A stretch of 64,000 bases of DNA, taken from positions 761-64,760 of the forward strand of contig JAGLRN010000034.1 of the NCBI GenBank assembly GCA_023136265.1, read 5' to 3'. This stretch comes from Thermoplasmata archaeon (GTDB taxonomy: Archaea; Thermoplasmatota; Thermoplasmata; RBG-16-68-12; JAGMCJ01). Every line of letters starts with the position of its first letter. Position 1 is the first letter of the stretch. The notes under the pieces were generated by a model. It was not told the origin of the DNA and ran no database searches. It saw only the letters and a list, made by a program, of their open reading frames with translations. This document shows, piece after piece, positions 20,473 through 33,205 of this stretch. The position numbers and the translations under genes were made by a program.

Positions 20473-20931
20473 TCAGGTTATGGCGTCCACGATGTTCTCG
20501 AGCTCCCTCTCGCAGTAGACGCATCTCAGCCGGACCGGGTTCTTGGAGACGACGGTGAACTCCGTCTCCACGGGCTCCTTGAGATTCGTGATGCAGTTCG
20601 GGTTCCCGCATTTCAGGATACCCTTCGCGACCTCGGGGAGCTCCACCTTGTACTTCTGCTTCACGTTGAAGTTCTGGATGATGTTGATCGTCGCACTAGG
20701 TGCAACAAGGGCAATCTTGTCGACCTCCTTTTCCAGGAGCTCTCTGTCCTCCACCTTGACGATGTCCTTGAGCGTGCTCTTCTTGCTCGTCACGCGCATC
20801 GCCACACTGACGGTCGAGTCGGAGCTCTCATCCGTTATCCCGAGTATCTTGAGGACCTTGAGCGCCATTCCGGCGGGAATGTGGTCGATCACGGTGCCGT
20901 TCTTGATGGGCGTGACCCTCAGCTCCCTCAT
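20473..20931 (-). CDS. pyrI: aspartate carbamoyltransferase regulatory subunit
   Basis: [27 protein letters not shown] and a C-terminal Zn site (CGNPNCITN...CVYCE). Confidence 0.9.
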
Positions 20932-21863
20932 TCGACCGCCCCCAGTATGAGCGCGAGAAGCGCCATCCTCACAGGAACGCCGTTGAACGCCTGCTCGAAG
21001 TACTTGGCGTGGTGCGTGCCGTCGACCGAGGGGTGTATCTCATTGACCCTCGGCAGAGGATGCATCACGATCATATCCTTCTTCGCCTCCTCGAGCAGTC
21101 CAAGGTCCACCTCGTACAGACCGGCCACTCTCTGGTATTCCTGCGGGTCAGGGAACCTCTCCTTCTGGATCCGCGTAACGTAGAGGACGTCGACCTTTCC
21201 GATCACGTCCTTCAGATCGCTCGTCAGCTTGGGCCGGACCCTGCCCACCTTCGCATCATCCACCACTTCCTTGGGCATCTGTAGGGTCGGCGGTGCGACG
21301 AAGTACAGCTTCGCCCCGAAGAGGGAGAGCGCGTAGGAGAGCGAGTGCGCCGTCCTTCCGTACTTGAGGTCGCCGACCAGAGCGACCTTCTGCCCCTCTA
21401 TCTTGCCCTTCTCAGTCCATATCGTGAACAGGTCAAGCATCGTCTGCGTCGGGTGCTGGCCGGCACCGTCCCCGCCGTTTATGATGGGCTTCGCGGAGAA
21501 TTTCGCAGCGAGCCTGGCGGCTCCCATGTGGTGGTGTCTCAGGACAGTCACATCCGCGTAGGACTCGGCCATCTTTATCGTGTCCGCTAGGGTCTCGCCC
21601 TTCTTCAGAGAGCTAACCTCCGGGTCTGCCATGCCGATGGCCCTGCCACCCAGCCTGCTCATGGCGCTCTCAAAAGAGAGGCGGGTCCGAGTGCTTGGTT
21701 CGAAGAAGATTGTGGCGAGGACCTTGCCCCTCAGGGACTCGTTCCTCTTCTTGCCCTTTGCCGCGGGGACCATCTTCTTCGCGACCTTCAGTATGTGCAT
21801 GGTTTCCTGCTTGGAAAAGTCCTTGATGGATAGTATGTCCCTGCCCTTGAACTGCATGCTCAT
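20928..21863 (-). CDS. pyrB: aspartate carbamoyltransferase catalytic subunit
   Basis: STRTRLSFE carbamoyl-phosphate binding motif, HPLP and TLDLF-like motifs. 4-nt overlap with pyrI. Confidence 0.9.
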
Positions 21864-21911
21864 CCTTGTTCAGAATGAATCGATGAATAATAAAGCTACC
21901 GAGGGTTGAGA

Positions 21912-22103
21912 TCACTTCTTCCCGAGAAAAGCGTAGGTCATCCACTCCTTCTTGTCCTTCATGCTCAACCACGCTCTTGTCAGATCGGGGACCTGCTTCG
22001 CTCTCTCCACGGCCAGGGATGCTATCGTCCTGGCCGCTATCGCGTCCACGTCCACTCCTAGGACGCTCTTGAGCAGGTATTTAACCCTTTCCCTCTTGTC
22101 CAT
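21912..22103 (-). CDS. hypothetical small protein
   Basis: 63 aa ORF preceded by an A/T-rich TATA-like element (TTTTTTTAAATA ~20-35 nt upstream). No recognisable domain. Confidence 0.3.
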   Translation of the reverse strand: MDKRERVKYLLKSVLGVDVDAIAARTIASLAVERAKQVPDLTRAWLSMKDKKEWMTYAFLGKK

Positions 22104-22255
22104 TCCAATAATAATATGCCCCGTTCAGGTATTTAAAAAAAGGGGGAAGGCCCAGGTCCTTTCGGGCCCGGTCCTTGTGGAGGAGGGGGTGAGCGCAAAT
22201 AAAGGGGTAGGCAATTCCGGTTTCCCAGAACTGCCCGTGGGTTGTGGAGGAGGGG

Positions 22256-22603
22256 TTATCTTGATAGGACGTCGACGGCTTTCCAGTCGCCTCCGAAGTC
22301 CTTGGTGACGCCTGAGGCCAGCTGGAACCTGACTCGAAGCCTACCATTCTCGAAGAATATGTAGGCGTTCTTGAGTTGGGAAAGATAGAGGCTGATCCGC
22401 TTTCCTCTCTGCGTGAGGGCCCTTTCTACACACGTTATCAGTCCGGCTCTCTCCAGCATGTGGATTCTTCGGTATGTCGCAGCGATCGGTATCCCGTACT
22501 CCCTGCTGAGTTCAATCGCGCTCTTGGGTTTCTTGAACGTAGCAACAAGGATCCTTGCTGCGTATTCGTCGGTAATCAGTCGTGATGCTTCCAAAGGATC
22601 CAT
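22256..22603 (-). CDS. small winged-HTH (ArsR/TrmB-like) regulator, paralog 1 of a four-member family in this window
   Basis: 115 aa. HTH core ELSREYGIPIAATYRRIHMLERAGLITCVE. Conserved C-terminal beta segment LKNAYIFFENGRLRVRFQL. ~70% identical to the 30662..31006 product. Confidence 0.6.
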   Translation of the reverse strand: MDPLEASRLITDEYAARILVATFKKPKSAIELSREYGIPIAATYRRIHMLERAGLITCVERALTQRGKRISLYLSQLKNAYIFFENGRLRVRFQLASGVTKDFGGDWKAVDVLSR

Positions 22604-22696
22604 CTTCTTTCCTCCTGACCTCTATATTCCAATCCTTCGCGACCATATATATAACGCAACGGGACGAGTATCATGGCTGATTCTCAAATGTAATAA

Positions 22697-23266
22697 TCAA
22701 TCGCCTATGACATCCGCGTTCCTCTCCAGAAGGGCCAGTTCCTTCGGTTCAAAAGCCCGCGGGTCTATCGAGACGAGGAACAGAGCCTTCTTCTGCATCA
22801 CGATCTCGTTCACGTACTCTATGAACTTCAAGACCCTCGGGAAGTCGTTGTTAATCATCAGGTACTCGAGCCCATCGAGGAGAATGGCTGCCTTGCTCCC
22901 CTTGTCCATGAAGCTGCCTATGAGGTTCGTGAGGCTCCCGAGGTTGTGGGGATCGACATAGTCCCTGCCGAGCGTGGTGGAGAGCCAGATCACCTTCATC
23001 CCGTCCCGCCCGCGCTTCCTAGGTATGTGATCTGGATGCCTCCTTGTGATGTAAAGGCCCGCGTAGCCATCATCCATCAGCTCGGTGAGGTACTCGAGGG
23101 CCCTCTCGTGCCTCTTCTCACGGAGGAAGTAGGAGTGCCCCTCTTTGAGAACATCCTTCCCTCTGCCCAGAAACAGGTCTCGGAAGAGCTCGTCCGTCGT
23201 GTTGTCTATGCTCAACATTAGTAGGGGCAGCATTCCCAACCAATCCTCGTTTGGATTACCTCTCAC
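22697..23266 (-). CDS. DUF835-like protein (degenerate RecA/KaiC-fold, no P-loop)
   Basis: 189 aa. ...DGYAGLYITRRHPDHI occupies the place of a Walker A; ...AAILLDGLEYL...ALFLVSIDP layout. Upstream of wHTH paralog 1 on the same strand. Confidence 0.5.
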   Translation of the reverse strand: MRGNPNEDWLGMLPLLMLSIDNTTDELFRDLFLGRGKDVLKEGHSYFLREKRHERALEYLTELMDDGYAGLYITRRHPDHIPRKRGRDGMKVIWLSTTLGRDYVDPHNLGSLTNLIGSFMDKGSKAAILLDGLEYLMINNDFPRVLKFIEYVNEIVMQKKALFLVSIDPRAFEPKELALLERNADVIGD

Positions 23267-23377: not shown

Positions 23378-24715
23378 ATGATGCTCACCGCCTTGGAGAA
23401 GCCGACGGGCACCTTGAGGATCCTCGCGTACGTCTATCAGAACGATCGCGGAACGATCTCGGATTTCTACAGGAAGATCGGGATAAACCAGGAATCCGCC
23501 TATTCCTCTCTCAGGAATCTCCTGCAGCTCGGCCTAATCTACGAGAAGGAGGAGGGCAAGTTCCCCTTCAGGAAGTTTTACTTGCTCACAACCACGGGGG
23601 ACCAGATCGCGAAGAAGCTGTCGTCCATAGAGGAAACGCTGAACGACACCGTATATGGCTACTATCGCAAGCTCGAGGAGCTGGAGACAGCGCCCGAGGC
23701 CCCGGAGAACCTCGCTGCCCGGCTCGAGATGATGCTCAAGATACAGGATGTCTGCTTCGCGACCGGTGAGTGGGATTCCTGCATGGAGTACTGCGGGAGG
23801 TCACTGGACCTAGCTCGGAGATTGGACGACAAGCCCGCCCAGCTCAAGGTCTTCAGGGACACCGGATGGATTCACGAGAGGAGAAGTGACTGGGACGAGG
23901 CCAGGAAGAACTTCGAGAGCGCTCTTGAAATGGCGAAGGAGACGGGCGATATGTCCGCCAAGGCTAGCATATTCTATGACCTGGGAGCCATCCACGAGAG
24001 GAATGGGGAGTACCGCCGAGCATTGGAGTTCTTCGACAAGTCGAGGCAAGCCTCCCATGACGCCAAGAATGACTGGAATCTGGCAAGAGCTCTGTACGCC
24101 TTCGGGCGGGTGGAGGCCCAGAGGGGTAACTACAAGAAGTCCATCGGGTACATGGAGAAGTCCATCGGGATGCTCGAGGAGATCGGGGACCTGAGCGAGC
24201 TTGCCAAGGTCTGCACCGGAATGGGGGCCACATGGTTCTATCTGGACGACATGGACAAGACCATCGAGTGTCACGAGAAGTGCATACGGACTGCCGAGAA
24301 GCTGGGGGATGCGACGGGAATCGGATACGGTCTGTCCAACGCGGCCGAAGCCTACGCGCTGAAAGGCGACACGAAGACGGCGCTCATATACCTCGAGAGG
24401 GCGCTCCGTATCTTCGAGAAGCTCAACGAGAGGATGATGATATCCTCCGTGTACTCCCACTACGGTCAGACCCACCGACTCAGAAAGGAATGGAAGAAGT
24501 CGGAGGAGTACTTCGGCAAGAGCATTGCCATCCTGGAAGAGCTCAACCTGCCGTACAACATGGCCGATGCCCACCACAAGTTCGGTGTCATGTACAAGGA
24601 GAAGGGTGAGCGGGACAACGCCCTTGATCACCTCTCCACGGCGTACGAGATATTCGAGAAGATTGGAAGCAAGAGCATGATGGAGAAGGTCGCCGATCTG
24701 CGAAAGGACCTCTAG
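23378..24715 (+). CDS. winged-HTH + TPR-repeat protein (putative regulator/scaffold)
   Basis: 445 aa. N-terminal ~90 aa is wHTH-like (ISDFYRKIGINQESAYSSLRNLLQLGLI). Then at least 6 TPR-like repeats (e.g. ASIFYDLGAIHERNGEYRRALEFFDKS, ARALYAFGRVEAQRGNYKKSIGYMEKS). Confidence 0.6.
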   Translation: MMLTALEKPTGTLRILAYVYQNDRGTISDFYRKIGINQESAYSSLRNLLQLGLIYEKEEGKFPFRKFYLLTTTGDQIAKKLSSIEETLNDTVYGYYRKLEELETAPEAPENLAARLEMMLKIQDVCFATGEWDSCMEYCGRSLDLARRLDDKPAQLKVFRDTGWIHERRSDWDEARKNFESALEMAKETGDMSAKASIFYDLGAIHERNGEYRRALEFFDKSRQASHDAKNDWNLARALYAFGRVEAQRGNYKKSIGYMEKSIGMLEEIGDLSELAKVCTGMGATWFYLDDMDKTIECHEKCIRTAEKLGDATGIGYGLSNAAEAYALKGDTKTALIYLERALRIFEKLNERMMISSVYSHYGQTHRLRKEWKKSEEYFGKSIAILEELNLPYNMADAHHKFGVMYKEKGERDNALDHLSTAYEIFEKIGSKSMMEKVADLRKDL

Positions 24716-28396: not shown

Positions 28397-28436
28397 TTAT
28401 CAGTTGTGATAATCAGTGCGAAATCCACTTAATAGT
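28397..28436 (+). promoter_or_regulatory. perfect inverted repeat TTATCA-N4-TGATAA followed by TATA-like ACTTAATAGT upstream of the DUF835-like/KaiC-like operon
   Basis: The inverted repeat occupies 28397-28412 and the TATA-like box 28427-28436. The likely start ATG is at 28470. Confidence 0.3.
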
Positions 28437-28469
28437 GGGGCTCAATTCTTTTCACTAGGCTGGGTCCTA

Positions 28470-29165
28470 ATGGTATACGAAACTGAAGTAATCGCCATGA
28501 GGGACGTGATATCCCAAATGATGAAGACCTCGCAGAATAGGCTCTTAGTGAACACTGACAGGGTCTACTTGGCGAAAACCAACCTCATCACGCTCAAGTC
28601 CCTTCTCGAGGAGGTGGGGCCCAGAGGGATCTTCTTGTCTATCAACCGACCCTACCACTACATGGCCCATCTGCTGAGGATCCACAAGGTCGACTACGAA
28701 GAGATGCTCTTCATCGACGCCATCTCCAAGATATCGGGGGAGAGGAAGATGGAGTGGAAGCAGACCACGTTCTTGGACAGCCCATTCCAGATTCCCAAGA
28801 TATTCGAGGACCTGCAGCTGATTGGTAAGACCTTGGACGGCTCCACAGCCATCATCAAGATCATCGAGGGCGACTTCGTTATGATAGACGACATCTCGGC
28901 GATCTTCCACTATAACGAGCTGGGAACCGGAAAGCGCTTCCTGAAGGAGTTCCTCGATGCTGTCGCCTCCAACCCGAAGTCATTCACTGCGTTCGCGATT
29001 GACCGGGAGACCCAGAGGGATACTTACGAGTTCCTGGCCGACCACTCCGACAGGTTGGTGGACATGGGCAACGCAGCCTTCATGGAGGTTCCCAAGGAGT
29101 TCCAGGAAGGGCACACCCCCATGCTACCGCCGTCAGAGGGCAAGAGAGGGATGGTCCATGAATGA
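28470..29165 (+). CDS. DUF835-like degenerate RecA/KaiC-fold protein (no Walker A)
   Basis: Start chosen at MVYETEV... (28470) on promoter spacing. ...PRGIFLSINRPYHYMAHLL... replaces the P-loop. 8-nt overlap with the downstream KaiC-like gene. Confidence 0.5.
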   Translation: MVYETEVIAMRDVISQMMKTSQNRLLVNTDRVYLAKTNLITLKSLLEEVGPRGIFLSINRPYHYMAHLLRIHKVDYEEMLFIDAISKISGERKMEWKQTTFLDSPFQIPKIFEDLQLIGKTLDGSTAIIKIIEGDFVMIDDISAIFHYNELGTGKRFLKEFLDAVASNPKSFTAFAIDRETQRDTYEFLADHSDRLVDMGNAAFMEVPKEFQEGHTPMLPPSEGKRGMVHE

Positions 29166-29841
29166 TGCGATCATAAGGCGGTCCAGCGGAACGCCCGGCC
29201 TGGATGAGATGATATCTGGAGGTTTCCCCTTCCCCTCGGTTCTCCTCGTTGCTGGGAGTGCCGGGACGGGAAAGACGACCTTCGCTCAGAAGTTCCTTTT
29301 CGAGGGTGCCAAGAACGGAGAGCAGTGCATATTCTTCACGACGCTCAGCGAGCCCACCCAGTGGATGTTGAGGTTCTCCTCCCAGTTCGAGTTCGTCGAT
29401 CCAGAGTACTTCGGCAGGGAGATAGTATACATCGACATAGGACACGACATAAGGGAGAGGGGCTCCCATGAGATCCTCGACGTCCTGGATGAGAAGATCG
29501 CCGAGATCATGCCACAGAGGATAGTCATCGATCCGATTACCATCGTTTGCGACTTCATAGAGGACAACTACAGGACATTCTTGTTCGATCTAGTCACTAG
29601 GCTGAAGAACTGGGATTGCGTGACGGTCCTGACGGGCGAGGTCGCTCCCGGTCAGCTTTATCCGCCGGAGATCGCCCACGCCGTGGACGGGATAGTCCTG
29701 CTCATGTACTCGCACGAAGGTGACGAGAGACGCAAGTACATCGAGGTCCTCAAGATGAGGGGAACGAACCATGTCACCGGAAAGCAGTCAATAGACATCA
29801 CAACCGAAGAGGGCATAGTCGTTCTCAAATCGAAGTTCTAG
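29158..29841 (+). CDS. KaiC-like single-domain RecA-superfamily ATPase
   Basis: Walker A AGSAGTGKTTFAQKFL. Walker B-like ...RIVIDPITI. 227 aa, the KaiC/RadA-paralog size. Confidence 0.75.
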   Translation: MNDAIIRRSSGTPGLDEMISGGFPFPSVLLVAGSAGTGKTTFAQKFLFEGAKNGEQCIFFTTLSEPTQWMLRFSSQFEFVDPEYFGREIVYIDIGHDIRERGSHEILDVLDEKIAEIMPQRIVIDPITIVCDFIEDNYRTFLFDLVTRLKNWDCVTVLTGEVAPGQLYPPEIAHAVDGIVLLMYSHEGDERRKYIEVLKMRGTNHVTGKQSIDITTEEGIVVLKSKF

Positions 29842-30017: not shown

Positions 30018-30250
30018 TCGTGTAATGGGTGAGGATGGGCTAGGGAACTATTCGAGATCCTTCTTCCTCGTGTCCTTGAAAACGATGACGTTGAGGCTTA
30101 TGACCTCTTTTTCTTCGTCCTCCTCCTTTGGAAAAATCACGCTTTTGCCGTTGGGAAGGATTTTGTGGAATCTTAGCTTCATCTTATCAGTAAATCGTAG
30201 AGAGCCGGTTTATTTAAACTCAGTCTCACGGTTATCGAGAGTGATTCTCA

Positions 30251-30589
30251 TTACAGAATCTCAATCGTCTCCCAATCCTGCGTCACTGCCTGCTCATCCA
30301 GTGTGAGGACGAACCTCAGCCGGATGTCGTTGTCCTCAATGTGAATGTGCCCCTTGTTGAGATTGGCCTCGAAGAGCCTCACTACTCTTCCTCGCCGTGT
30401 GACGATTCTCTTCCTCACCGACAGAAGTCCTGCCCTCATGAGCAGGTTCAGCTTCCTGTAGCACGAGGCGATTGGAATCGAGTACTTCCCGCAGAGCTCG
30501 TACGCGGATTTCGGTGAGAGAAACGTCGCAACAAGGATGTGCTTCACATCATCATCGCGCAACAGTTTCAGCTTCTGATGGATGTTCAT
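30251..30589 (-). CDS. small winged-HTH regulator, paralog 2 (most divergent)
   Basis: Start set at MNIHQKLKLLRDDDVKHILVATF. This aligns residue for residue with the N-termini of paralogs 1 and 3. HTH YELCGKYSIPIASCYRKLNLLMRAGLL. C-terminal RLRF motif. Has its own TATA-like element (TTGATAAAAAG) in the 72-nt spacer. Confidence 0.5.
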   Translation of the reverse strand: MNIHQKLKLLRDDDVKHILVATFLSPKSAYELCGKYSIPIASCYRKLNLLMRAGLLSVRKRIVTRRGRVVRLFEANLNKGHIHIEDNDIRLRFVLTLDEQAVTQDWETIEIL

Positions 30590-30661
30590 CAGAGAACGTA
30601 TTAGTGTGACAAATAATGGCACTTTCGACCTTTTTATCAAAAGAGAGTATCAGAAGAGATA

Positions 30662-31006
30662 CTACTCCTTGGAATCGACGCCCGTCCAGTCCCCGCCGAA
30701 GTCCTTGATCACACCGGTGGTCAAGTGGAAGCGGACCCTGAGCCTTCCGCCTTCAAAGAAAACGTAAGCGTTCTTGAGCCTCGAGGTGTAGAGGTTCTTC
30801 CTCTTCCCCTTCTGCGTCAAAATGCGCTCTACGCACTCCACGAGCCCTATCTCCTCAAGGGCCCTGATCTTTCGATAGCAAGCAGCAATCGGTATCCCGT
30901 ACTTCCTGCTTATCTCTTGGGCGCTCAGTCTTCTCTTGAAAGTTGCCAAGAGGATCTTCGCCGTGTATTCATCCGTCAGCAGTTGAGAGGCTTCTAGCGG
31001 TGTCAT
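30662..31006 (-). CDS. small winged-HTH regulator, paralog 3
   Basis: 114 aa. MTPLEASQLLTDEYTAKILLATF...YGIPIAACYRKIRALEEIGLVECVE...GRLRVRFHL. ~70% identical to paralog 1. Confidence 0.6.
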   Translation of the reverse strand: MTPLEASQLLTDEYTAKILLATFKRRLSAQEISRKYGIPIAACYRKIRALEEIGLVECVERILTQKGKRKNLYTSRLKNAYVFFEGGRLRVRFHLTTGVIKDFGGDWTGVDSKE

Positions 31007-31134
31007 TCTAAACCCTCCCTGATACCCCCATGACGAGAAGTTCTCAGGTTATGGTTGTAGTTCGTATCACTTTCTGTATTTAAAGGCTTCCCTTAAGCTA
31101 TCAGCAAGGAGAACACAATTATCAGGATTGATAG

Positions 31135-31488
31135 CTACCTGGTTGGGATGGGGATCTTGATCCACGTGTTGTTGATGTCCTCGTCGTGGTTGAACTCAAG
31201 TCTGATTCTGAAATGCCCTTCCTGGAACATGATGCAGGCGCTCTTGAGCTGTGACTTGTAGAGCTTCATGTTCTTTCCCTTGGAGGTCGTGACGATCTTC
31301 TCGACCTCGATCAATCCAGCGTCCTCGAGGTCATGCATCTTGCGGTAGCAAGCGGCTATGGGGATATCGTACTTGTCGCTGATTTCCTGAACTGACCGCG
31401 GGTAGAAGTACGTCGCAACAAGAATCCTCTCTGCGTAGTCATTAGTCAGTAGTCTAGAGATTGCCTTCTCCCGCATTGCGATACTCAT
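31135..31488 (-). CDS. small winged-HTH regulator, paralog 4
   Basis: 117 aa. ...YAERILVATY...YDIPIAACYRKMHDLEDAGLIEVE...FRIRLEF. Directly downstream of the two-domain KaiC-like gene. Confidence 0.55.
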   Translation of the reverse strand: MSIAMREKAISRLLTNDYAERILVATYFYPRSVQEISDKYDIPIAACYRKMHDLEDAGLIEVEKIVTTSKGKNMKLYKSQLKSACIMFQEGHFRIRLEFNHDEDINNTWIKIPIPTR

Positions 31489-31557
31489 TCTCTACTTGAT
31501 TTAAGCACATTTCTATGCAATTATCAACGATGATACCCATACACCCGTTTCAGGCGG

Positions 31558-33072
31558 CTAGATTATCGGTGTGAGCATGGCCTTTGGACAGCCACTCGAG
31601 TGATCGAAGGAAATGGCATGGAGCTCGGTGTAGGGCTTCTCGCCGAAGAGAACAACGGAACCGTCTATGTTCTCGATCTTCAGATGGGTGTGGGCAAGAT
31701 TCGCGAGCGGTGCGGTGGAAGAAGTCGTTGACGTAACAATCCCTATGAAGATGTCCTTCGCCTTCCTGATCGACGACATGTGACCGGCCATATCCTCTAT
31801 CACTTGGTGACCGAAGACCGCCTCCAGGGTATCGAATCCCATCAGGGACAGGATCGGACGCTCCGCCTGCGAGAGATGATACTCGATGTTGCTCAATTTC
31901 AGCTCGTTGTCGATATCAGAACCCTCCATAGGGAGTGCTATCTTGGAATCCTCGACAGACGTTGTGGCGGACGGCTCGAACACGCGCATGCATCTCTCGA
32001 GCGCCTCCTGGCCGACAAAAGGCATGATTTCGTCCCTAACGATCTCCGAGGAGGCTTTCTTCTCGGGGACGAACGCAACTCCCCTGCCGAGTGAGATGAA
32101 ATTCGATAGGAGCGCGGTCTTGATGAGGTCGGTGTACAGCGTGTCGACATTCCCGCCTACCTCCAGAGCGACTATCGTACCCTTCTTGAATCCGCCTATC
32201 AGAGCGTCGAGTTGCTCGCTTCCCGTCGAGATCCAGTTCTCCGATATGTCCGGTATGGGTACCCAACTCGACTTCTCTTCCGGTATCTCAATCTTCTCGA
32301 AGCCGAAGGTCTTGATCCTCCCCCCGTCCAGAGTGTAGGCGCACTTGTGCTGCCTGATCTCGGTGCCGCGAAGCTTCTCGATCTTCATAATCCTCAAGCG
32401 TCTGCCCTCGTGTTCCTCGCTCGTGAACGTGATGACCCCGTCCCCAAGATAATCGAGCCGCGTCTCCCCAGGGCTCTCCAGCACATACAGGACATCGGAC
32501 GAGGAAGTCTCGACCAGGTCCTTCTGGAGTGTGTTCATTAGCTTCGAGGGGTGGATCCCGTATCTCTCCGCCAGCGCGTTGATGCTGTCTATCAGTATGA
32601 GGCTCTTCTCCGGGAGCGTGTCCTCGACCACATCATATGCCCTGTCGATCTCGGGGAGGTCCGATCCAAGGTCCAGGATGAGGCTGGTCTCCGTGACCTC
32701 GCCCTCGCTTATCTTGTCGTAAATGCTGCTCTCGTCCTCCTCGCCCATCTCTATCCTGCCCTCGAGCTTCTTGAGCTCCGTTCTGTCGACCTTGCCTTCC
32801 TCCTCCTCAGGCCTTTGGTCGAACCTTGTCGGGGCGATCCGCTTCTTGAACTCGACCCTGTCCTTGAGCCAAGGGAACTGGTTGTACAGGGAATGGTCGC
32901 TTACCCTGATCGACATGTAGTAGGAGTTCTCGACACTCCCCAGTTCCTCTGTCAGTTGCAGGGCGAACGTCGTCTTGCCCGTTCCCGCACTGCCCTTGAC
33001 TATCAGGGAATGTCCACCTGGCCCTTTGAAGAAATCCAGCAGCGCATTGGGAATACCCTTCTCTTCCTTCAT
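31558..33072 (-). CDS. two-domain KaiC-like RecA-superfamily ATPase (active N-domain, degenerate C-domain)
   Basis: 504 aa. Walker A GSAGTGKTTFALQ in domain 1, followed by a charged insert. Domain 2 (GGFKKGTIVALEVGGNVDTLYTDL) lacks a P-loop. Confidence 0.75.
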   Translation of the reverse strand: MKEEKGIPNALLDFFKGPGGHSLIVKGSAGTGKTTFALQLTEELGSVENSYYMSIRVSDHSLYNQFPWLKDRVEFKKRIAPTRFDQRPEEEEGKVDRTELKKLEGRIEMGEEDESSIYDKISEGEVTETSLILDLGSDLPEIDRAYDVVEDTLPEKSLILIDSINALAERYGIHPSKLMNTLQKDLVETSSSDVLYVLESPGETRLDYLGDGVITFTSEEHEGRRLRIMKIEKLRGTEIRQHKCAYTLDGGRIKTFGFEKIEIPEEKSSWVPIPDISENWISTGSEQLDALIGGFKKGTIVALEVGGNVDTLYTDLIKTALLSNFISLGRGVAFVPEKKASSEIVRDEIMPFVGQEALERCMRVFEPSATTSVEDSKIALPMEGSDIDNELKLSNIEYHLSQAERPILSLMGFDTLEAVFGHQVIEDMAGHMSSIRKAKDIFIGIVTSTTSSTAPLANLAHTHLKIENIDGSVVLFGEKPYTELHAISFDHSSGCPKAMLTPII

Positions 33073-33205
33073 TTGACACCCTACGTCAGTAAGGGCAACT
33101 CCCTTTTAGATGTTTTTCTCCTCGTTATCAGGAGTGAGAACGTCCGGCTGACGGAGATGATCGGTTACGGAGGCCTCTCTTGGGCACGCCGCCCGCCGAA
33201 AATGC

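Follow-up and report, generated by a model that had tools for sequence, protein, structure and literature searches.

The gvpD and gvpE genes are adjacent and co-transcribed, and gvpE lies directly downstream of gvpD (PMC4390858). GvpE activates promoters through an element that abuts the transcription factor B recognition element (BRE) (PMC4390858). GvpD binds GvpE and lowers the amount of GvpE, and the P-loop and basic regions of GvpD are needed (PMC4390858). More generally, few predicted regulators in archaea are as abundant as the KaiC-like ATPases; the partners or targets of these ATPases are mostly not known, and for most of them no second component could be predicted (PMC4858521). Here, we analyzed a 64,000-nt stretch of DNA from a Thermoplasmata archaeon (contig JAGLRN010000034.1, positions 761 to 64,760), which is hereafter called the window. 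On its minus strand, the gene of an ATPase, which we assign from its sequence to the GvpD family, is followed by three genes for small winged helix-turn-helix (wHTH) proteins (A, B and C) and by a microprotein gene; a fourth wHTH gene (D) lies ~8 kb away. We propose that these genes are probably a conserved regulatory cassette of Thermoplasmata, in which autoregulated wHTH factors would be controlled in their activity or stability by the ATPase.

Results

Gene order of the cassette

The ATPase gene occupies 31558..33072 (minus strand) and encodes 504 amino acid residues. Past it, A (31135..31476; 113 residues from the ATG at 31476, or 117 from the ATG at 31488), B (30662..31006; 114 residues) and C (30251..30589; 112 residues) follow on the same strand as the first, second and third genes, and the microprotein gene (30048..30182, minus strand; 44 residues) closes the cassette. 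D (22256..22603, minus strand; 115 residues) adjoins pyrBI. The locus had been pointed out by a model that read the sequence alone (hereafter, the original prediction). Its 504-residue minus-strand ATPase, its three consecutive small wHTH open reading frames (ORFs; 31135..31488, 30662..31006 and 30251..30589, with gaps of 69, 128 and 72 nt from the starts used there) and its fourth copy at 22256..22603 were all found again. For A, the true start is most likely the second ATG, 31476, because the orthologues of A all begin with ATGCG(A/G), ~22 nt past a TATA-like element, and because independent gene callers give 113 residues.

Gene order was scored with one hidden Markov model per component in 45 loci from a genome scan seeded with the ATPase and in 80 loci from a metagenome scan seeded with B. 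The order ATPase, A-type gene, B-type gene was found on a single strand in 67 loci. The window adds the order ATPase-A-B-C and is the sole ABC locus among the ~70 loci surveyed for order, the rest being AB. Where the B-seeded loci offered enough upstream sequence, A was present in 68 of 70 and the ATPase in 56 of 60. In the genome scan, all 17 clade-1 ATPase loci have a member of the wHTH family within 6 kb, mostly at less than 200 nt. The hosts are Methanomassiliicoccales and Thermoplasmata of soil, sediment and gut. Recurrence in ~70 independent loci of these groups is far above chance. The original prediction had coupled the ATPase to a set of related wHTH proteins, an idea to be given up if the wHTH homologues never occurred with KaiC-like genes or if the four proteins came from unrelated families; we found ~70 linked loci and one family.

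A few loci depart from this order. A and B are split by an insertion of ~1.5 kb in L005 (11978-13495), L074 (4502-6001) and L049. In L052, no ATPase gene was found within the ~620 nt upstream of A, which is all the sequence there. In L097 and L102, the 1.1-1.4 kb upstream of B yielded neither A nor the ATPase gene.

The surroundings of the cassette are also conserved. In locus L126, the order is UDG, ATPase, A, B, PRTase, amidohydrolase, PNP, DUF835, a fifth wHTH paralogue, D, pyrB, pyrI and FEN1. The window is syntenic with L126 except for the extra C gene and an inserted pair of genes, which encode a 231-residue protein and a single-domain KaiC. The original prediction had placed the DUF835 and second KaiC genes in an island at 22-33 kb. 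Both genes are present, but the region is a syntenic housekeeping block and not an island.

These data bear on another explanation, in which the wHTH genes were amplified locally and recently, or belong to a mobile or defence island, and together serve no conserved function. C is lineage-specific, the KaiC and 231-residue pair is a lineage-specific insertion, and PADLOC gave weak matches to the wHTH domains of Csa3/CARF proteins. However, these matches span the generic HTH only. A and B hold fixed positions in ~70 loci, and B and D are reciprocally monophyletic. The housekeeping flanks are syntenic, and no integrase, transposase or defence protein was found in the block by Pfam and PADLOC. Moreover, the ATPases of the cassette loci share 50-55% identity, which speaks against one recently spread element. 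We consider this explanation very improbable. The defence-system reading, for which PADLOC yielded weak Csa3-type HTH matches only, was rejected.

Assignment of the ATPase

Both Pfam domains of GvpD were detected in the ATPase in the correct order: GvpD_P-loop (PF07088; 60.5 bits, cut-off 24) at residues 13-230 and GvpD_bR2 (PF20440; 44 bits, cut-off 27.9) at residues 270-503. True GvpD scores 346 and 459 bits on the same models. The ATPase and GvpD of the Halobacterium plasmid are colinear over residues 7-504 with 24% identity (E 4e-32; tblastn and BLASTP). An AlphaFold2 (AF2) model of the ATPase (predicted local distance difference test, pLDDT, 75) has two RecA-like domains. Its best match in the PDB is two-domain KaiC (E 3e-21; Foldseek), and the structure search gave no solved structure closer than this. 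Because both Pfam domains pass their cut-offs, the colinearity is full-length and the fold is that of two-domain KaiC, the ATPase is a distant member of the GvpD family and not a generic KaiC. Thus, the label KaiC-like in the original prediction is right for the superfamily and the two-domain fold, but it was too general. At least 531 homologues were found, mostly in metagenome-assembled genomes of Thermoplasmata/Thermoplasmatota.

In domain 1, Walker A (GSAGTGKTT) and Walker B are both intact, and GxAGTGKTT is invariant across 20 ATPase homologues; this P-loop is the predicted nucleotide-binding site. At the P-loop position, domain 2 has ALEVGGNVDTLY, with no GKT/S, and the P-loop is thus confined to domain 1, as originally reported. 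The catalytic Glu-Glu of the KaiC type is apparently RVSD in domain 1. An Arg-rich stretch, GRRLRIMKIEKLRGTEIRQHK, is conserved in the homologues and may or may not correspond to one of the basic regions of GvpD (bR1 and bR2). The C-terminal region has SSIR(K/R) and no RRR, when 494RRR496 of Hfx. mediterranei GvpD is taken as the reference with positions not matched.

The ATPase further differs from GvpD by an acidic insert of ~60 residues (residues ~67-126), which is predicted to be disordered and contains KVDRTELKKLEGRIEMGEE. An acidic segment of ~35 residues, LEG(R/K/Q)xExGxE...(F/L)D(L/I)G, is present in all 58 ATPases with adjacent wHTH genes (45 loci by the strict pattern, which under-counts, and 13 more by inspection). 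Among 28 other loci, the segment was found once, in a locus that has a nearby wHTH gene on the opposite strand. Clade 2, the Nitrososphaerota and Baldrarchaeota homologues and true GvpD all lack it.

A second GvpD-like clade of Thermoplasmata (L016-L032, for example L024 7303-11527), with 33-35% identity, is encoded directly downstream of alaS.

The ATPase is named GvpD by Pfam and NCBI and is colinear with true GvpD. The cassette might accordingly be read as an orthologue of the gas-vesicle regulator, which controls gas-vesicle genes elsewhere in the genome. However, gvp structural genes were found neither in the 64 kb window nor next to any of ~140 loci in their flanks, the identity to GvpD is just 24%, and the partner is not GvpE. 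The hosts also argue against it: these groups of Methanomassiliicoccales and Thermoplasmata from soil, sediment and gut are not known for gas vesicles. We therefore give hardly any weight to this reading.

A family of small wHTH proteins

A profile built from the four copies recovers one coherent family, in line with the original prediction. The pairwise identities are 42% (A-B), 38% (A-C), 44% (A-D), 35% (B-C), 40% (C-D) and 67.5% (B-D). All four copies share IL(V/L)AT(F/Y), the HTH motif Y(G/D/S)IPIA(A/S)(C/T)YR(K/R) and a C-terminal R(V/I/L)R(F/L) strand. These motifs had been noted before, together with LK(N/S)AY, which fits C poorly. Two further claims did not survive. Paralogs 1 and 3 had been given as ~70% identical, but in transcription order this pair is A and C, with 38% identity, and the only pair with ~68% is B and D. 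The duplication had also been taken as recent. In a neighbour-joining tree, A, B, C and D form separate clades. Those of B and D, each with members from many genomes, are reciprocally monophyletic, and the B/D duplication is therefore ancient. Likewise, A and B are at conserved positions, and C alone is lineage-specific. The B orthologues are 76-97% identical, and C-type orthologues are limited to close relatives (P0126, P0161, P0226, P0240, L046 and L132-L137).

Only B passes the cut-off of the Pfam model HTH_20 (30.0 bits; cut-off 27). The scores of A (26.4), D (25.2) and C (14.5) are below it, yet by their sequences these proteins are clearly homologous to B. A also matches Pfam TrmB with 23.8 bits. 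The AF2 model of B (pLDDT 83) has four helices and a two-strand wing, which are followed by three extra strands. The nearest solved structures are ArsR-type regulators from archaea and bacteria, namely the Pyrococcus heat-shock regulator Phr (2p4w), which is the best match, PH1932, SmtB and CzrA, and they match the first ~75 residues only; the match to Phr has an E value of 5e-5 by Foldseek and 0.002 by hmmsearch. By this model and the HTH_20 matches, A-D are ArsR/Phr-like winged-helix proteins with three added C-terminal strands. The family comprises at least 751 sequences when clustered at 90%, and 406 clusters when the identity is set to 50% (E <= 1e-10). It has no dedicated Pfam model and is almost wholly confined to Thermoplasmata.

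A fifth, more divergent type of 99-106 residues is encoded directly upstream of D-type genes (L126 7572-7892, L140 3091-3390 and L142 3071-3385). The L126 member (hhalign probability 99.1%) is preceded by DUF835 and has a TGATAATCA site and a TATA box of its own.

Three other ideas about the family were discarded. Pfam gives no support to the JGI label "ribosomal protein S25" on family members. Apparent fusions (P0258, 444 residues; P0121, an A-B chimera) were set aside as likely artefacts of a wrong frame or of the assembly. Homology of the family to GvpE was not significant beyond the generic fold (hhalign probability 1.7%).

Promoters and the palindromic element

The palindrome TGA(T/G)AATCA occurs at 82 sites in 11.3 kb of A-B spacer and at 11 sites in 537 kb of the remaining locus sequence, which is a ~350-fold enrichment. 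In the 55 non-redundant loci used for the spacer statistics, 46 spacers have at least one site and 35 have at least two. The start-to-start spacing of the pair is 32 bp in 31 of these 35 loci. From the end of the proximal copy to the TATA box, there are exactly 10 nt (consensus of the A-B spacers, TGATAATCAnGCGCGATAGCTTAAATATCC). In the window, there are seven exact sites against 1.3 expected, and three of them are at the promoters of D, of the microprotein and of the 231-residue/KaiC pair. The variant TGATAATTG occurs only twice in 64 kb, upstream of A and of B, against 0.21 expected. From these positions, the wHTH proteins are most likely the binders of TGA(T/G)AATCA; the support is indirect but strong. 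We hereafter call the element the operator. A generic count of CTGATAA (13 against 3.9 expected) was too unspecific, and the 9-mer analysis was used instead.

In the promoter of A (31498..31526, minus strand), TGATAATTG is at 31526..31518 and the TATA-like element CTTAAATC at 31505..31498. Because this element is only ~21 nt from the ATG at 31476, the A mRNA would be leaderless. The promoter of B (31077..31124, minus strand) contains TGATAATTG at 31124..31116, a BRE/TATA remnant (GATAGCTTAAGG) at 31102..31091 and a strong TATA box (TTTAAATA) at 31084..31077, so that the original prediction was correct in giving B its own TATA-like element. A Shine-Dalgarno sequence, GGGAGGG, precedes the ATG of B at 31006. 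Upstream of the ATPase gene, the intergenic region 33073..33205 contains the half-site CTGATAA (33125..33131, minus strand), which shortly precedes a TATA-like stretch rich in A. TGATAA recurs at the same place in 17 of 46 non-redundant orthologous ATPase promoters, ~8-10 nt upstream of the TATA-like AAAGTATT.

The microprotein promoter (30211..30250, minus strand) consists of operator TGAGAATCA at 30250..30242 and TATA box TTTAAATA at 30218..30211, 28 nt before the ATG at 30182; in L046, the layout of this promoter is the same. The D promoter (22645..22686, minus strand) has operator TGAGAATCA at 22686..22678, a degenerate copy, TGATACTCG, at 22673..22665 and the TATA box TTATATATAT at 22654..22645. 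The degenerate copy ends 10 nt before the TATA box. Other D-type promoters have operator-like sites: TGATAATCA and AGATAATCG (the latter 10 nt before the TATA box) in L126, a site in L129, and TGAGAATCA in L138. Because each gene of the cassette has its own BRE/TATA promoter, a single co-transcribed operon seems unlikely.

A second conserved element, TATCA-N(5-12)-GAGAACC, is found upstream of the A and microprotein promoters, in the ATPase-A spacer and past B, in many loci (e.g. L007, L008 and L089). This element differs from TGA(T/G)AATCA and may be recognised by the other paralogue.

The microprotein

The microprotein of the window has 44 residues (MKLRFHKILPNGKSVIFPKEEDEEKEVISLNVIVFKDTRKKDLE, starting with MKLRFHKILPNGKSV). 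Its homologues (MRIRFHKILNEGRSVRYEK...DLNIIVMKE) have 43-45 codons and are encoded downstream of the last wHTH gene. Even by a strict pattern, 52 of 79 loci have a homologue no more than 450 nt from B. The differences between the genes are distributed over the codon positions as 2028:1704:3072, with enrichment at the third position. The family comprises 94 protein clusters, all of which are annotated as hypothetical, and it has no Pfam match. Derivation of the microprotein from the C-terminal strands of the wHTH proteins, with which it has "R.RFH" in common, was rejected (hhalign probability 1.3%).

ATPase genes beside three wHTH families

GvpE is usually called leucine-zipper-like; GvpE of Halobacterium pNRC200 (L131 3930-4511) matched PadR with 31.5 bits (cut-off 27) at residues 94-152. 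Separately, genes of Nitrososphaerota GvpD-like ATPases are flanked convergently by two paralogous HTH_45 genes for proteins of ~100 residues (L038 1696-2478, L041 11409-11735 and L045 4676-5441). A GvpD-type ATPase gene with one or more small wHTH genes therefore recurs with three wHTH families, namely the PadR-like GvpE, the A/B family and HTH_45. This recurrence argues for functional coupling of the proteins and not for mere co-regulation of the genes.

Another explanation must be weighed here. The wHTH proteins might be ordinary local regulators, which act on their own promoters and on the ATPase gene, while the ATPase has a different target, for example in DNA repair or other signalling. 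The operator half-sites in the ATPase promoter would fit this explanation, as would neighbours such as UDG-Nudix, Hsp20 and PolX, and the UDG gene that adjoins the ATPase in L126 also. RecA-superfamily ATPases often function in DNA metabolism, and the paralogous GvpD-like clade lacks a linked wHTH gene. However, the UDG neighbour is not kept in most loci. Linkage of the ATPase to three unrelated wHTH families, and the acidic ATPase segment that tracks the presence of wHTH genes, speak against separate tasks. Furthermore, GvpD, the sole characterised member of the family, acts on a factor encoded beside it. We think that this explanation is unlikely, although it carries real weight.

Paralogue D and neighbouring genes

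D is upstream of pyrB and pyrI in the window (20473..22603, minus strand) and in L126-L130 and L138-L141. This linkage is found in at least five lineages with differing upstream context, and D may be a regulator of the pyrimidine biosynthesis genes. A small conserved ORF is often present between D and pyrB (window 21912..22103, MDKRERVKYLLKSVLGVDVDAI...; 68-79 residues elsewhere). Directly past the D stop codon, there is an invariant motif, CCCCTCCTCCACAA(CCCA), which occurs twice in the window (22175..22186 and 22242..22253, minus strand) and also in L126 (8352-8420), L138 (3864-3925) and L140 (3852-3912). Each CCCCTCCTCCACAA copy resembles an anti-Shine-Dalgarno sequence; a variable GC hairpin and a run of T come next. 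The D-pyrB spacer gave no Rfam match. The CCCCTCCTCCACAA elements may act between D and pyrB as a terminator or attenuator.

Directly upstream of D is a DUF835 gene (22697..23266, minus strand; PF05763, 123.7 bits, cut-off 33.1, E 6e-36), the product of which has weak FlaH/ArlH matches. In L126, DUF835 is likewise followed by two wHTH genes of the family. Possibly, DUF835 and D are another case in which a wHTH gene is paired with a KaiC-related protein. However, D does not adjoin DUF835 in L129, L138, L140 and L142. The DUF835 link is thus not general for D, and it is pyrBI that consistently adjoins D.

Divergent from the DUF835 gene, at 23378..24715 (plus strand), there is a gene for a 445-residue protein with an N-terminal wHTH (weak TrmB and HxlR matches) and a long array of tetratricopeptide repeats. 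The spacer common to the two genes contains TGATAC half-sites.

The inserted pair consists of the 231-residue gene (28470..29165, plus strand) and the single-domain KaiC gene (29158..29841, plus strand; PF06745, E 1e-42), which overlap by 8 nt. Its promoter has TGATAATCA at 28407..28415 (plus strand), 12-13 nt before the TATA-like CTTAATAG at 28428..28435. The pair was called in L132-L137 and is absent from the syntenic L126. Thus, 28407..29841 is a lineage-specific insertion that shares the operator of the cassette. The 231-residue protein gave no match in Pfam, NCBIfam or PADLOC, and it has no significant similarity to the ATPase or to DUF835.

Discussion

We propose that A, B and D would bind TGA(T/G)AATCA and would auto- and cross-regulate the cassette together with copy D; in this genome, the neighbouring KaiC operon would be a further target. 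Activation is somewhat more likely than repression, because the operator is just upstream of the BRE, as is the GvpE-responsive element in gas-vesicle promoters. The ATPase would bind the wHTH factors in a nucleotide-dependent manner and would inactivate or destabilise them, as GvpD acts on GvpE. The clade-specific acidic loop of the ATPase is a candidate docking element, and we infer that the microprotein may be an additional modulator.

Several points weigh against this proposal. Control of the wHTH factors by the ATPase, or contact with them, is suggested by gene linkage and by the precedent of GvpD, and the likeness to GvpD-GvpE seems to be functional rather than orthologous, because the wHTH family is not detectably homologous to GvpE. 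The alaS-linked GvpD-like clade has neither the LEGRIE acidic segment nor a linked wHTH gene. With RVSD apparently in the place of Glu-Glu, hydrolysis of ATP by the ATPase is uncertain. The separate promoters weaken the operon argument. Concerning the operator, its palindrome of 9 bp is short as the site of a wHTH dimer, and outside the cassette there are almost no sites in ~0.5 Mb of flanks. In the window itself, the A and B promoters carry just the variant TGATAATTG, and the B promoter is remodelled.

The proposal can be extended, as a speculation to which we would attach little confidence. GvpD-family ATPases might be general ATP-dependent off-switches of transcription factors in archaea, and each clade might be devoted to small winged-helix substrates of its own, which would be GvpE for haloarchaea, the A/B family for Thermoplasmata and the HTH_45 pairs for Nitrososphaerota. 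In Thermoplasmata, the acidic loop might then mimic DNA, the microprotein might be a third component, and D might couple the system to pyrBI.

We found no published description of this arrangement, or of GvpD linked to Thermoplasmata, in the literature covered, beyond which the key comparison with KaiC hubs lies; the original prediction had likewise not recognised the arrangement as characterised. That prediction missed the microprotein gene, the operator sites, the acidic segment that tracks the wHTH genes and the GvpD-GvpE analogue. With its defined parts (an ATPase, two transcription factors, a microprotein and a precise DNA site), the cassette makes the targets of a KaiC-like ATPase testable by biochemistry. 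It also suggests that the GvpD-GvpE mechanism, which has been studied only in a few haloarchaeal gas-vesicle clusters, is one case of a broader principle. In addition, the analysis adds two families that are new and unnamed: a microprotein family, and a wHTH family of ~400 clusters (50% identity), for which there is a candidate recognition sequence.

Comparison with known systems

Circadian KaiC has Walker A/B motifs and catalytic glutamates in both RecA-like domains, and its partners are KaiB and KaiA. It is the best structural match to the cassette ATPase over both domains and has the same double RecA-like architecture. However, the identity is ~15%, domain 2 of the cassette ATPase has no Walker A, and EE is apparently replaced by RVSD. 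There are no signs of phosphorylation sites or of oscillation. No KaiA or KaiB gene was noticed among the ORFs of the window, although no dedicated search was made. With the P-loop of domain 2 lost, the ATPase does not appear to be a circadian KaiC. Archaeal KaiC-like ATPases were reportedly proposed as signalling hubs by Makarova and colleagues in 2017. The single-domain archaeal proteins (ArlH/FlaH, CirA and arCOG01171) belong to the same superfamily and have been proposed to act through a "second component". One such gene (29158..29841) is beside the cassette and has the same operator. In contrast, the cassette ATPase is of the two-domain GvpD type, and its candidate partner family is defined.

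The wHTH proteins resemble Phr, ArsR and SmtB in the fold of the first ~75 residues and in the HTH_20 signature. They differ at the C-terminus, where three beta strands replace the coiled coil of Phr. Furthermore, classical ArsR operators are of the 12-2-12 type, whereas the element of the cassette is a 9-bp palindrome.

GvpD-GvpE is the nearest system. The two ATPases belong to the same family, have both Pfam domains, are colinear over the full length and have a P-loop in the first domain only. In both cases, the gene of a small DNA-binding factor directly follows the ATPase gene. GvpE, too, has a winged helix (PadR), and the GvpE-responsive element abuts the BRE (PMC4390858). In contrast, the ATPases share 24% identity, and that of the cassette has the ~60-residue acidic insert. 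Its partners are two to four ArsR/Phr-like paralogues of ~113 residues with a beta extension. The cassette adds a microprotein gene and has separate promoters in place of one gvpDE transcript. It belongs to another phylum and has no gas-vesicle genes nearby (compare the pNRC200 locus, L131). By analogy, the known kind to which the cassette would belong is the ATPase/transcription-factor pair of the GvpD-GvpE type, and what appears to be new is the form that this pair takes in the cassette of Thermoplasmata.

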